A stretch of 64,000 bases of DNA from an uncultured Gammaproteobacteria bacterium (GTDB lineage: Bacteria; Patescibacteriota; Patescibacteriia; 2-12-FULL-60-25): positions 120,591 to 184,590 of the forward strand of contig CAZMOB010000001.1 in assembly GCA_964567995.1 (NCBI GenBank), read 5' to 3'. The position numbers and the translations under genes were made by a program. Below, one piece after another: positions 25,805 to 31,139 of the stretch (its first letter is position 1; each line of letters opens with the position of its first letter). Below the pieces are notes generated by a model that saw nothing but the letters and a program-made list of their open reading frames with translations, was not told the DNA's origin and searched no databases.

Positions 25805-27910
<2,106 letters not shown>

Positions 27911-27941
27911 TCTTCTCACTTTTGCTCTTTTTTCATCCCAT

Positions 27942-28703
27942 ATGACTTCTTGGGATAAGCTCCTTCGTACCTTAGGCTTCACGGATAGTGAATCAAAGTT
28001 GTATCTCGTTTCCTTGGAAACCGGTCCGGCCACTGTTCAAGACTTGGCCAAAAAGGCCAAGATTTCACGTGTGACCGCCTATGCCGCCGTCGACGCGCTC
28101 ATGCGGAATACTTTGATGAGCACGATGCAACAGGGGAAAAAGCGCCTTTTCTCGGCTGAATCACCCGATCGCTTGATTTCGTTCGTGCAAAATCGCATGC
28201 AGCACATGCAATCGACGCTGAAAGAGGTCGAGGCGTCGGTCGAGGAGTTACGCTTGTTGCAACGGGGTGAGAAACCGGTCGTAAAAATGTTCACCGGAGA
28301 AGAGGGGATCCGCGCATTGCAAAATGACTTGCTACAGGTCGCGCCGAAAACATTGGATGAGGTGGCGCATTTTGACGAAGTCTTACGCTTGTATCCGACC
28401 GAAGGCAATCGTGAGTTTTTCGATAAATTAGACAAGATCCATCCCAAGCGCCGGTTGATTTTCTACAGCCGTGGCGACAATCAAATTCGTGGAGGATTTC
28501 CCGATGAGCACATCGCTGTGATCAAAGAAACAGGCCCGAGTAAATTCTTTGCCGATATCCAGGTCTATGGAAATCGAGTCGTGATGTCGACGTTGCGAGG
28601 AGAAATTATTTTTATCCTCATCGAAAGTCAGGATTTGGCGGATGCCTTTCGCGAGATGTTTGGGCACATGTGGAATAATGTCCAGGATAAACGCATCAGT
28701 TAG
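27942..28703 (+). CDS. TrmB-family transcriptional regulator
   Basis: Start moved to ATG 27942. N-terminal wHTH LGFTDSESKLYLVSLETGPATVQDLAKKAKISRVTAY plus a C-terminal TrmB-like domain. Confidence 0.75.
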   Translation: MTSWDKLLRTLGFTDSESKLYLVSLETGPATVQDLAKKAKISRVTAYAAVDALMRNTLMSTMQQGKKRLFSAESPDRLISFVQNRMQHMQSTLKEVEASVEELRLLQRGEKPVVKMFTGEEGIRALQNDLLQVAPKTLDEVAHFDEVLRLYPTEGNREFFDKLDKIHPKRRLIFYSRGDNQIRGGFPDEHIAVIKETGPSKFFADIQVYGNRVVMSTLRGEIIFILIESQDLADAFREMFGHMWNNVQDKRIS

Positions 28704-28727
28704 CCGATAAATTTTTAAAAAAAAGAG

Positions 28728-28784
28728 ACGCCCGGTCCGAGTCTTGCGAGCGCGGATGCGCGGCGCCTGACTCGGCCGGGGCGT
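28728..28784 (-). terminator. Long GC hairpin terminator for the small GC-rich ORF
   Basis: ACGCCCGGTCCGAGTC (28728-28743) pairs with GACTCGGCCGGGGCGT (28769-28784) with 2 mismatches. On the minus strand it is followed by CTCTTTTTTTT (plus-strand A-run 28713-28724). Confidence 0.6.
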
Positions 28785-28813
28785 GGAGCCTCTTCTTCGA
28801 TGTAACGCGACCT

Positions 28814-28924
28814 CTAGGGTCGCCCCCCACCAGTTTGTGTCAGCTCCGCGGGGCCGTCGGCTCCGCAGGTCGACTCCTCCTGCTGGTAGTGGTCGAAGAA
28901 GTTGATGTACGGTTGTCTGTGCAT
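28814..28924 (-). CDS. Candidate 36-aa small protein (MHRQPYINFFDHYQQEESTCGADGPAELTQTGGGRP); GC-rich
   Basis: Below the ORF-track size cutoff. ATG 28924 is preceded by AGGAG (9-nt spacer). The codons show a strong third-position G/C bias. The ORF has its own promoter (29049-29077) and terminator (28728-28784). Confidence 0.4.
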   Translation of the reverse strand: MHRQPYINFFDHYQQEESTCGADGPAELTQTGGGRP

Positions 28925-29048
28925 GAAAGGACGCTCCTGTTTCTATACGATGGGTGCGATAGAGCCGCTCTTTGTTCGCCGTCCGAAGCCATCTGATGGG
29001 TAGGTCTTCCGACCCACTGTTCTTTGGCCCGGTTTCGAAGAGCCTAAT

Positions 29049-29077
29049 ACTCTAACAGAAATCAGGAAAAAAGTCAA
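29049..29077 (-). promoter_or_regulatory. Sigma70-type promoter (leftward) of a divergent promoter pair
   Basis: Minus strand: TTGACT (29077-29072), a 17-nt spacer, then TAGAGT (29054-29049). This implies a leader of about 120 nt before ATG 28924. Confidence 0.55.
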
Positions 29078-29128
29078 GTTAAGGCTTAGATTAGCCAAAA
29101 TATCTTTCCCACGAGGGTTCTATTTACC

Positions 29129-29157
29129 TTGACAAAACTGATAAAATGGGCTATGAT
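29129..29157 (+). promoter_or_regulatory. Sigma70-type promoter (rightward) of a divergent promoter pair
   Basis: TTGACA (29129-29134), a 17-nt spacer, then TATGAT (29152-29157). The leader to ATG 29265 is about 105 nt. Confidence 0.6.
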
Positions 29158-29264
29158 TGTCTGTTCTTTACAGCACGATTCGCTTGTGAAAATGGCTTGT
29201 TTGTGACGACGCACTGGGTGATGAGACGGCTACGGCCCTTCCCTCGTCATTCGCTGGAGTCGCC

Positions 29265-29858
29265 ATGAAGAAGCCCCGCAAAATCAACTGGAAGCTCGTA
29301 TTTGCCTGGTTCATCCCGGCGCTCTTCGGCCCCGCCTTTGCGCGGTTGGCCTGGACCTACCTGGAGCGTCTCGGTACGTGGGTTGGCGGCCATGTCGGCC
29401 TGCGCCCCTCGCTCCACCTCGAAGGGATCAGTCGTGTAGACGACAACGCCACCACCTTCTGGTGTCTCTACGCGGCGGGCATCCTCGCCTGGTGGCTCCT
29501 GCACAATCTCCTGGGATGGACTAAGGAGCGGGATGTATTTCGCGAGAAGCTGGGAAGATACTTCGTGCTTCCCGCATTCGTCGGCCCGGTCGTGGGCATG
29601 CTCATCTGGTGGCTGTTTCCGTACGTCTGGTCGCTGATCGATGCGTTCTTCGGGGCGATCTCCAGCTTCTTGCACGTGGGTGGCCTCTGGAGGACGATCG
29701 CGCACCTCCTCGAGTGGTGCTCCGAGCGCATCGTCGCCCTCTTCGATGCCGTTTGGCGCCTGCTCTGGACGGTGATCGCCCCGCCCGTCGGTCACTTCCT
29801 CAAGTGGCTGCTCCTTCGTCTCATTACCGCTCCTTTGAATTACATCGCTTCGCGTTAA
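29265..29858 (+). CDS. Trp-rich polytopic membrane protein (hypothetical); GC-rich
   Basis: 197 aa, 4-5 hydrophobic helices, many Trp residues (WKLVFAWF, LAWWLLHNLLGW, LIWWLFPYVW). GGAG lies 6 nt upstream of the ATG. The antisense ORF 29247-29876 is judged a shadow. Confidence 0.6.
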   Translation: MKKPRKINWKLVFAWFIPALFGPAFARLAWTYLERLGTWVGGHVGLRPSLHLEGISRVDDNATTFWCLYAAGILAWWLLHNLLGWTKERDVFREKLGRYFVLPAFVGPVVGMLIWWLFPYVWSLIDAFFGAISSFLHVGGLWRTIAHLLEWCSERIVALFDAVWRLLWTVIAPPVGHFLKWLLLRLITAPLNYIASR

Positions 29859-29873
29859 CTCGCTCGAAGCACC

Positions 29874-29918
29874 CACGCCCGGGGCCTGCGCATCTCGCGT
29901 AGAACCTCCCCGGGCGTG
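29874..29918 (+). terminator. 11-bp perfect GC hairpin after the Trp-rich membrane protein gene
   Basis: CACGCCCGGGG (29874-29884) pairs with CCCCGGGCGTG (29908-29918). A second hairpin, AAAGAACTAGC / GCTGGTTCTTT, at 29964-30003 ends in a T-run. Confidence 0.5.
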
Positions 29919-30017
29919 TAGGACAGTTCCCCTCAGATCACTCGCTGGTCTACGGAGAACGAAAAAGAACTAGCCTCCAAGCTTGCTCGGGCGCTGGTTC
30001 TTTTGTATTCTAACGGT

Positions 30018-30353
30018 ATGTCGATCCAACCTTCACGTATTTTGACCCAATGTCCGCTGTGCCAGTCGGTGTACGATGAGGCCGGGATTCGGTTGGTAGA
30101 AGATCAGGGGGCTACAAGGCTCTTTCATTGCAGCTGCAAAAAGTGCGGCCGGGCCATGCTGGCGGTAGTTCTGGAGGCTTCGGGCGTCGTGAGTTCCGTG
30201 GGTGTTGTTACGGACCTTGAAGCAGCCGATGCCAAGCGGTTCCATGAGGCGGCGGCGATATCGGTCGACGAATGCCTACAATTCCACGTACAGCTGGAGA
30301 CTCAAAGCAGGGAATTGTGCCAGGCATTGCTGCAACCATCGAAAACGGCGTAA
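30018..30353 (+). CDS. Zinc-ribbon-containing hypothetical protein
   Basis: Start taken at ATG 30018. Two Cys pairs (CPLCQS..(24)..CSCKKCG). 111 aa. Confidence 0.55.
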   Translation: MSIQPSRILTQCPLCQSVYDEAGIRLVEDQGATRLFHCSCKKCGRAMLAVVLEASGVVSSVGVVTDLEAADAKRFHEAAAISVDECLQFHVQLETQSRELCQALLQPSKTA

Positions 30354-30391
30354 ACCAGCAATTTTCTCTAAAATCAAGTGAAATTCCCACG

Positions 30392-30421
30392 AATCCCGTC
30401 CCTTGACGGGATTTCGATTTT
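30392..30421 (+). terminator. Rho-independent terminator upstream of L25
   Basis: AATCCCGTC-CCTT-GACGGGATT followed by TCGATTTTCT. The same stretch contains TTGACG, 17 nt, then TATCGT, so it may also serve as the L25 promoter. Confidence 0.55.
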
Positions 30422-30452
30422 CTCGTATCGTTAAGCCACTTTTTTGAAGTCT

Positions 30453-31139
30453 ATGAAATACGAGATCACCGCAGAAACACGTACCAGCACCGGCCGCCGT
30501 GCCAAGAACGAATTGAAGAAGATGCGTATCCCGGCTGCCATGTACGGCAAAGGGGTTGCGAGTCAGATTATTACGTTGCCTAAGTCGGCTTTTGTGAAGA
30601 TGTACGCTGCCGCTGGCTTCTCCAGTTTGGTGGATGTAGCGGTTGATGGTGGATCCTCGGTCAAAGCGGTTATCAAGGAAGTGCAATTGCATCCTCTGAC
30701 GAATGAAGTGACTCACGTCGACTTCCACCAGGTCCGCATGGATGAAAAGATGACCGTCCGCATTCCTCTCGTGTTTACGGGTGAATCGCTCGCGGTGAAG
30801 GGCTTAGGTGGAACCTTGGTCAAATCGATGGATGAAGTTGAAATCAGCTGTTTGCCAGCCGACCTGCCTCATGAGATTGCAGTCGATCTGTCCGCCCTCT
30901 CAACCTTCGAAGATTCGATCCCTGTATCTTCTCTCTCCTTGCCAAAGAATGTTGAGATTCTCTCAGATCTGAATGCGACGATCGCCACAGTCGCTCGTCC
31001 GATGACAGAAGAAGAGATCAAGAAGTTAGACGAAGTGGTTGTAGCCGACGTCTCTGCGATCAAGAGCGAAGCCGATCTGAAGAAAGAAGAGAAGGAAGAA
31101 GCTGCCAAGAAAGATACAGAGGAAAAAGCTGCGAAATAG
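30453..31139 (+). CDS. rplY: 50S ribosomal protein L25/general stress protein Ctc
   Basis: ATG 30453. MKYEITAETRTSTGRRAKNELKKMRIPAAMYGKG.., VQLHPLTNEVTHVDF, and a Lys/Glu-rich C-terminal tail typical of the Ctc form. Confidence 0.9.
   Translation: MKYEITAETRTSTGRRAKNELKKMRIPAAMYGKGVASQIITLPKSAFVKMYAAAGFSSLVDVAVDGGSSVKAVIKEVQLHPLTNEVTHVDFHQVRMDEKMTVRIPLVFTGESLAVKGLGGTLVKSMDEVEISCLPADLPHEIAVDLSALSTFEDSIPVSSLSLPKNVEILSDLNATIATVARPMTEEEIKKLDEVVVADVSAIKSEADLKKEEKEEAAKKDTEEKAAK

Follow-up and report, generated by a model that had tools for sequence, protein, structure and literature searches.

A TrmB-linked Patescibacteria locus carrying a [T/S]GGGR small-protein gene and a predicted Trp-rich membrane protein behind a covarying start-codon hairpin

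Patescibacteria (candidate phyla radiation, CPR) have small, largely unannotated genomes, and their small proteins and cis-regulatory RNAs are almost undescribed. The present analysis concerns a GC-rich patch at 28713-29918 of a 64,000-nt stretch of contig C1 (the whole stretch is called the window) from a host genome of 1.28 Mb and 51% GC. The locus is read as a lineage-specific Patescibacteria cassette. In it a TrmB-type regulator gene would be joined by a convergent transcript for a small peptide and by a divergent, translationally locked mRNA for a membrane protein, the peptide and the membrane protein being a diversifying pair. This reading is tentative, with a probability of roughly 0.45. 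The observations that carry it are the conserved anatomy in nine species, covariation in the rightward leader hairpin, amino-acid-level selection on the peptide, the substitution pattern of the membrane gene, and the linkage to TrmB. Both proteins and both leaders match no described family in Rfam, Pfam, PHROG, PADLOC or PDB.

The patch has a GC fraction of 0.58-0.67, compared with about 0.50 in its surroundings, and encloses an AT-rich core of 0.41. An earlier note on the same DNA, made from the letters alone, had described promoters, leaders, two open reading frames (ORFs) and hairpins here, and every one of these features was found again at its place. A consensus scan for sigma-70 promoters returned exactly the two divergent near-consensus promoters of that note (2 sites observed, 0.6 expected in shuffles). 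The leftward unit passes through a leader of about 120 nt and an AGGAG to a 36-codon ORF, and the rightward unit through a leader of about 100 nt and a GGAG at 29255-29258 to the membrane ORF. The features are as follows.

27936-28703, + strand: TrmB-family transcription regulator, winged helix-turn-helix plus C-terminal domain (Pfam PF01978)
28717-28784, - strand: leftward intrinsic terminator, long hairpin at 28727-28784 with U8 at 28717-28724 (RNA fold)
28814-28924, - strand: 36-aa small protein MHRQPYINFFDHYQQEESTCGADGPAELTQTGGGRP (ORF list, genus homologues, motif, G+C at third codon positions, GC3)
28934-28938, - strand: Shine-Dalgarno (SD) sequence AGGAG of the peptide ORF, 9 nt 5' of the ATG
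28967-29043, - strand: leftward 5' leader element, three-tier hairpin of 77 nt (minimum free energy, MFE, fold; same architecture in the genus)
29049-29077, - strand: leftward sigma-70 promoter TTGACT-17-TAGAGT, TG-extended (consensus scan, 9/12 matches)
29078-29128, no strand: 51-nt spacer separating the two -35 boxes, with the palindrome GGCTTAGATTAGCC at 29083-29096, a candidate operator
29129-29157, + strand: rightward sigma-70 promoter TTGACA-17-TATGAT (consensus scan, 11/12 matches)
29203-29266, + strand: rightward leader hairpin pairing the SD-AUG interval and the AUG (folds, RNAalifold, covariance model)
29265-29858, + strand: 197-aa Trp-rich all-helical predicted membrane protein (ORF list, composition, positional homologues in the genus)
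29874-29884 / 29908-29918, + strand: perfect 11-bp GC inverted repeat with a 23-nt loop (repeat scan); not a canonical intrinsic terminator, because no T-run lies 3' of the repeat

Conservation was followed by reading the DNA upstream of the zinc-ribbon (Zn-ribbon) gene in ten species of the genus, all of which possess this gene. Nine of them, namely the window and eight relatives, have a common layout that consists of the TrmB gene, a leftward small ORF, divergent promoters, a rightward membrane ORF and, further on, the Zn-ribbon gene. The remaining one, G002, is the most divergent species, and its short contig has other content. The cassette is single-copy in the genus. Moreover, the peptide ORF and the membrane ORF co-occur in 9/9 genus loci that have either of them, and also in a more distant metagenome contig (L073), which bears out the proposal of the earlier note that the two genes form a real module. 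The leftward promoter is near-invariant across the genus (consensus TTGACATTTTCTCTTATTTCTGCTAAATT), and the rightward promoter occurs in all nine species as TTGACAAAA..TGCTATAnT with an extended -10. The window carries a reduced version: its -35 boxes are 51 nt apart as against 157-158 nt in the eight relatives, 114 nt follow the peptide stop codon as against 445-556 nt in five relatives, and there is no third gene.

Seven of the nine genus members, and L073 as well, have the third gene 3' of the membrane gene; the window and G008 lack it. Its coordinates are L006:5380-5625, L021:4220-4456, L024:549-806(-), L027:6576-6815 and L073:6341-6715, and the gap from the membrane gene amounts to 8-39 nt where it was measured (five genus loci) and to about 160 nt in L073. 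In the genus the protein is about 80 aa long. It starts with the conserved pattern MQP..G.RLPE.L..G.ND, has a single transmembrane helix and finishes in a run of Lys; in L073 the homologue is longer (124 aa) and lacks the poly-Lys tail. When a holin or phage lysis cassette was looked for, only this protein gave a PHROG holin match, which was non-significant (E = 0.061), and no endolysin was found.

The small ORF of the leftward transcript appears to be a genuine small-protein gene. In the nine species an SD precedes the ATG by 5-9 nt and the ORF comprises 36-63 codons (174 in G009); it is nowhere broken, and SD, ATG and a common motif, written in varying synonymous codons, are kept in 9/9 species, as the earlier proposal of a small ORF would have it. 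The peptides are strongly divergent. They have in common the motif [T/S][G/A]GGR in 1-4 copies, often together with GGDGP; for instance, the G005 peptide reads ...TGGGRP-CTRSY-TGGGRP-CIE-TGGGRP-CAHH-TGGGRP. Within the frame, 563 residues contain 18 instances of [G/A]GGR; the remaining frames and regions of these transcripts, 5,422 codons in all, contain one. In frame this makes 3.2 per 100 aa, compared with 0.02 per 100 codons outside it, an enrichment of about 160-fold. The instances use the synonymous codons ACT/ACC/ACG, GGT/GGC/GGA/GGG and CGA/CGC/AGG. Such enrichment in frame with different synonymous codons argues for selection on the peptide and not on the RNA. Furthermore, the TGGGRP-stop pattern is found in 3 of the 127 family genomes, all of them genus members, and the reversed control gave 0 matches. 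No Pfam family matched the peptide, and no second copy of it or of its motif was found in the host genome. The G009 gene of 174 codons (L023:95-619(-)) has SGGGRGGGRG near the N-terminus, ASGGGRGRGGR near the C-terminus and an Asp/Asn/Thr-rich middle, and it does not resemble the 3' untranslated regions found in the other species.

The rightward leader hairpin is also conserved in the nine species. Its 5' arm, GUGACGACG in the window and CAUGACGAC, CAUGGUGGC, CAUGGAGGCC and CAUGAAGGCUCU in relatives, pairs with the SD-AUG interval and the AUG itself. Of the 21 pairs that RNAalifold predicts for the nine leaders, 11 show compensatory double changes. In this alignment 94.2% of the cells are paired, compared with 29-50% when the partners are slid by 1-3 columns, and the covariation score was reached by 0 of 500 shuffles. 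A covariance model of the hairpin (R1) matches only the nine loci among the 127 family genomes. The L073 leader shows the same sequestration of SD and AUG by a different sequence. The rightward leader folds with -30 to -53 kcal/mol, and its anatomy suggests that the hairpin would serve as a translational lock that represses translation. The earlier idea that the long leaders could hold cis-regulatory RNA has gained ground, both leaders having a conserved structure and the rightward one covarying. In addition, CAUG is self-complementary, and the anti-AUG arm thereby makes an upstream AUG with an upstream ORF of 4-13 codons in most species; none of these upstream ORFs has an SD. Examples are MTTDWKR* in G005 and G001; MACL* in the window (29193-29207) starts from a separate upstream AUG.

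The membrane ORF has 197 aa in the window, with the Trp richness described earlier (8.1%), and 186-229 aa in the eight genus relatives; its membrane nature is a prediction. An AlphaFold2 model from the single sequence is all-helical with a predicted template modelling score (pTM) of 0.29, and 14 sequences gave five helices with a predicted local distance difference test (pLDDT) score of 74 and pTM 0.39. Foldseek found no match to this model in PDB (best E = 6.5), and Pfam, PHROGs and PADLOC gave nothing above threshold. A word-seeded search of 5.8e9 proteins returned 0 relatives of the window protein, and an exhaustive phmmer search over 1.84e9 representatives returned only two weak multi-stretch matches; for the G005-type protein only 6 relatives were found. 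The distant genus members are 16-27% identical and have collinear motifs (an N-terminal helix with ..SLxGL.., a W, and ..EKG..W...P....P.vG...W). Substitution rates at non-synonymous (dN) and synonymous (dS) sites are as follows.

Membrane gene, G004/G005: dN 0.257, dS 0.615, dN/dS 0.42
Membrane gene, G006/G003: dN 0.231, dS 0.936, dN/dS 0.25
TrmB and Zn-ribbon gene, G004/G005, G006/G003 and G004/G007: dN/dS 0.02-0.06

The membrane gene is thus evolving about 25 times faster than its neighbours at non-synonymous sites, and these rates indicate that it is under purifying but relaxed selection.

The linkage to TrmB extends beyond the genus. The domain assignment is firm (PF01978, E = 2.7e-10, 40.4 bits against a gathering cutoff of 25.6). 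The Zn-ribbon gene is a family core gene, present in 121 of the 127 genomes. In eight other sampled genera it stands near gyrB, either directly after it or after a small membrane protein or FtsW, with neither TrmB nor the module, and TrmB therefore appears to be part of the inserted block. The earlier note had seen an autonomous two-gene module inserted between a TrmB regulator and the Zn-ribbon gene. The place and the module hold good; TrmB, however, appears to be no outside flank, and the autonomy finds no support, since TrmB travels along and its homologues elsewhere carry other cargo. Eight loci with TrmB homologues from the wider Patescibacteria were read (L073-L080), of which L076 ends just after TrmB and is uninformative. 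Next to homologues of 43-70% identity there is a convergent promoter with a GC-enriched transcript of 330-715 nt, and then divergent cargo. L073 (70% TrmB identity) shares with the window the context of gyrB-TrmB ... Zn-ribbon-L25. Its leftward peptide has 59 aa and contains ESGGGRGGR; the locus also encodes a GC3-rich membrane protein of 214 aa and a counterpart of the third gene, and its leader sequesters the AUG. In L074 (63%) the leftward peptide is Cys-rich, 67 aa long and contains FGGGGGRGSC, and the cargo facing it comprises an ABC ATPase, an FtsX-type permease and a protein of 477 aa. L075, L077, L078, L079 and L080 (43-57%) lie in unrelated genomic contexts, with a convergent sigma-70 promoter 350-530 nt past the TrmB stop codon and a 330-500-nt GC-enriched transcript with terminator-like hairpins, in which no conserved ORF was found. 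A downstream gene was called in four of these (L075, L078, L079 and L080), and there the rightward cargo is of other kinds, namely a small ORF of lipoprotein-like character, an enzyme of the CCA-adding type and a membrane-anchored coiled-coil protein of 240 aa that recurs among them. This last protein of about 240 aa (L078:6921-7646, L079:5593-6312, L080:6605-7330) consists of an N-terminal anchor, a coiled coil and a C-terminal domain, without a Pfam match. Rfam gave only tRNAs on the seven distant TrmB loci. As judged from these loci, the combination of TrmB, convergent structured transcript, divergent promoters and variable cargo appears to be the older unit, and the GGGR peptide with the Trp-rich membrane protein appears to be its version in this genus and the nearest relatives. 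A literature search found no paper naming both TrmB and Patescibacteria.

The leftward leader is probably a conserved structured element as well, although this is not proven. In the window its tiers are P1 (GCUCU/AGAGC), P2 (CCGGGCCA/UGGCUUCGG) and P3 (GUGGGUC-GGAA-GACCUAC), and the tetraloop hairpin GGUC-GGAA-GACC noticed earlier turned out to be the tip of this 77-nt stem-loop (MFE -30.5 kcal/mol, z = -3.3). Nine independent MFE folds gave the same three-tier hairpin of about 75 nt, beginning 6-7 nt after the -10 hexamer. P1 has a conserved 5' strand, G[C/U]UC[U/C]C[U/C], followed by a purine-rich internal loop. P2 differs between species yet its two strands are complementary in each (CAGGCU/AGCCUG, CCAAGCC/GGCUUUGG, CAGGUC/GACCUG, CACAGGUC/GACCCUGUG), and P3 is a hairpin of variable sequence with a constant insert length of 30-35 nt. 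The stability of the hairpin reaches z = -3.7 to -1.4 in 7/9 species, and the fold of the whole leftward transcript z = -4.4. At the other end, the long hairpin terminator with its T-run, also described earlier, is recovered by the fold and adjoins the TrmB stop codon; a simple terminator scan missed it, its loop being too long. Both terminator arms are conserved in the genus (GCCCGGCCGAGU ... ACUCGGACCGGGCGUCUCUUUUUU).

The part 3' of the peptide stop codon in the five relatives is non-coding, as frameshifting indels between close species indicate. It is nevertheless 83% identical, with perfectly conserved blocks of at least 50 nt, between species with dS of about 0.6, and it may be a structured RNA domain lost from the window version. 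Examples are L005:3830-4262(-), L006:3600-4035(-) and L021:2560-3032(-). The idea that this region once coded for a protein like the 174-aa one of G009 and has since decayed was considered and rejected, as tblastn finds the GGGR motif only and indels break every frame. A known non-coding RNA, such as the signal recognition particle RNA suggested by the GGAA tetraloop, or 6S, RNase P or tmRNA, was likewise rejected. Rfam 15 (E <= 1) gave 0 matches in 27500-31000 of the window, so that the scan of the leaders asked for by the earlier note matched no known RNA family, and 0 in six homologous genus loci; ARAGORN found no tmRNA in the window.

The module is also set apart by its composition. GC3 is 0.78 in the peptide ORF and 0.81 in the membrane ORF of the window, compared with 0.56-0.63 in gyrB, TrmB, Zn-ribbon, L25 and the next gene. 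Across all nine species it is 0.72-0.93 in the peptide gene and 0.81-0.93 in the membrane gene, compared with 0.55-0.72 in the flanking genes. As the bias is kept in all nine species, it appears to be maintained and is not the remnant of a recent import. The host genome (G000) contains about 37 ORFs of at least 90 aa with GC3 of at least 0.78 and normal G+C at second codon positions, a minority compositional class that includes both module genes (examples are C1:27184-28236, C2:78359-79357, C3:140183-140731 and C5:44571-45704); many are orphan- or accessory-like. Moreover, G006 (L021) and G003 (L020) have nucleotide-identical Zn-ribbon genes and a TrmB dS of about 1.7, which implies a recombination breakpoint within or beside the module. 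Recombination-linked GC bias is a possible cause of the GC3 pattern.

The spacer palindrome GGCTTAGATTAGCC of the window is a possible TrmB operator. Similar palindromes, GGCTC-N4-GAGCC, occur in the inter-promoter spacers of L074 and L075. The GGCT-N6-AGCC type of orientation is not seen in the other genus members, which have AGCCA-N5-TGGCT or AGCC-N8-GGCT instead.

From this arrangement we infer how the cassette may work in vivo. TrmB would act on the control region common to both units and so set their transcription. The rightward mRNA would be transcribed from its near-consensus promoter and be held translationally locked by the leader hairpin, until processing, a helicase, temperature or a trans-acting factor opened the lock and the membrane protein was translated. 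The peptide and the membrane protein would then act together as a diversifying pair in export, immunity or reception. The ABC cargo of L074 and the multi-unit peptides lean toward such a pairing of peptide and membrane partner. A further version, quite unlikely as it stands, holds that TrmB is always paired with a convergent structured RNA, and that this RNA or the lineage-acquired [T/S]GGGR small protein is the trans-acting key that opens the start-codon lock.

Several points weigh against the cassette reading. The window membrane protein shows no more than marginal similarity to the family of the genus (profile match by hhalign with E = 0.011 and probability 3.7%; BLASTP E = 0.13), and its homology would rest mainly on position. 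The leftward hairpin is of unexceptional stability in 2/9 species (z -0.8 to +1.1). Moreover, the MAFFT alignments are out of structural register, and the support for this hairpin therefore consists of nine concordant independent folds. The peptide is hydrophilic and has no signal sequence, hydrophobic stretch or recognised leader, and no maturation enzyme or peptidase was found near the cassette with Pfam, PHROGs and PADLOC. These absences weaken the exported-peptide side of the reading and lean against a classical bacteriocin or ribosomally synthesized and post-translationally modified peptide (RiPP). Finally, at TrmB loci of 50% identity or less the convergent RNA is without a conserved ORF, so that the functional role of the RNA may be older than that of the peptide.

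This last point leads to the main rival, in which RNA rather than peptide is the functional core. The main product of the leftward gene would be a structured regulatory RNA, partner to TrmB; it might, for instance, act in trans or control TrmB by way of convergent transcription. The ORF would be a secondary addition of the lineage, and the membrane protein mere local cargo of the divergent promoter under TrmB control. Distant TrmB loci do keep the convergent promoter and the GC-enriched transcript with terminator while their cargo differs, and the conserved non-coding 3' region of the relatives points the same way. However, the window has only about 114 nt of that 3' part and has kept ORF, SD and motif, and no sequence or Rfam-detectable structure is common to the distant versions, so that this explanation is regarded as doubtful. 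A role of the small ORF as a translation-arrest or leader peptide acting in cis, of the Pro-stop or RAPP-like kind, is extremely unlikely. Three species do end in GGGRP-stop, and Arg-Pro-stop recalls TnaC. Arrest motifs of the RAPP and RGPP type are known (PMC12992588), but neither occurs in these peptides. Against this role, a terminator rather than a gene lies 3' of the ORF, and the C-termini vary (RP*, RGGSSR*, RGGCSS*, RGG*, RSA*, GDGPA*).

The peptide might instead be a precursor from which exported or modified peptides of a bacteriocin, RiPP or signal-like kind are made. The repeated [T/S]GGGR(P) units would then be processing or recognition sites, and the membrane protein would be the partner in immunity, export or processing. 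Tandem peptide units resemble multi-core precursors, and the peptides of relatives carry 3-4 tandem TGGGRP units; both peptide and membrane protein are hypervariable, and the single positive hint toward transport is the pairing of the Cys-rich 67-aa GGGGGR peptide with ABC ATPase and FtsX permease in L074. Nevertheless, this transporter belongs to the distant L074 and not to the window locus, whose neighbours are TrmB, Zn-ribbon and L25; there is no leader of the double-glycine or Nif11 type, no signal, no modifying enzyme and no C39 peptidase. Besides, the window peptide carries only one unit, right at the C-terminus, and Cys is not conserved across the family. A precursor role is accordingly unlikely. 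Still less probable is the type I toxin-antitoxin-like pair that the earlier note had listed among its candidates. Here the membrane protein would be toxic and membrane-damaging, the leader would keep its mRNA inert, and the leftward RNA would be the antitoxin pairing with that leader. The covarying occlusion of SD and AUG, the structured RNA in a divergent, non-overlapping arrangement and the strong promoters are consistent with it. However, when the leftward RNA is compared with the rightward leader and the first 30 nt of the coding sequence, the longest Watson-Crick complement comprises 7-10 nt in the nine species, equal to shuffles, where about 18 nt or more would be expected of a type I pair. 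Furthermore, RNAduplex z scores for leftward RNA and rightward leader scatter around zero (-1.95 to +1.56). The protein is also much longer than type I toxins, which usually have <60 aa, the ORF within the leftward RNA is itself under selection at the amino-acid level, and dN/dS <1 in nine species argues for a maintained cellular function, so that this candidate is very unlikely.

The locus offers two new structured leader elements, one of them strongly supported by covariation, a new family of small proteins whose repeated motif is selected at the peptide level, and an orphan membrane-protein family that diversifies rapidly while keeping its extreme GC3 bias. All of these are tied to one TrmB-type subfamily whose layout of regulator, convergent RNA and divergent cargo spans distant lineages. 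The rightward leader provides a clean and testable example of a candidate translational lock in a phylum without a genetic system. If the peptide and the membrane protein are an interaction or immunity pair, the locus would mark strain-level conflict or host interaction in episymbionts. If an RNA or peptide key does exist, the locus would hold a new gated translational switch, and what it controls would be a hypervariable protein on the surface of an episymbiont.

Three kinds of known systems invite comparison. The toxin mRNAs of tisB, zorO and dinQ have translationally inert leaders that sequester SD and AUG. The rightward leader resembles these and other sequestering 5'-untranslated-region hairpins, such as RNA thermometers, in that an upstream arm pairs with SD-proximal sequence and the AUG, with compensatory changes. 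Its stem is far more stable than is typical of thermometers. Compared with the toxin leaders, it has no Rfam match and no detectable antisense RNA, and a multi-helix protein of about 200 aa lies downstream. Loci of class II or leaderless bacteriocins with immunity proteins, and AgrD/AgrB, likewise link a small hypervariable peptide gene to a polytopic membrane protein of about 190-230 aa. As in such peptide and membrane-partner loci, the membrane protein here diversifies in step with the peptide and the locus is lineage-restricted. In contrast to them, the genes are divergent and not operonic, the peptide is hydrophilic without an amphipathic or leader region, the membrane protein resembles neither AgrB nor immunity proteins in sequence or fold, and the window contains no sensor kinase, transporter or peptidase. 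Lastly, the regulator shares with the sugar-responsive TrmB regulators (PF01978) a bona fide TrmB domain, which lies here beside a regulated-looking pair of divergent promoters. It differs from them in having no linked sugar-metabolism genes and in that its Patescibacteria subfamily is consistently accompanied by a convergent structured transcript.

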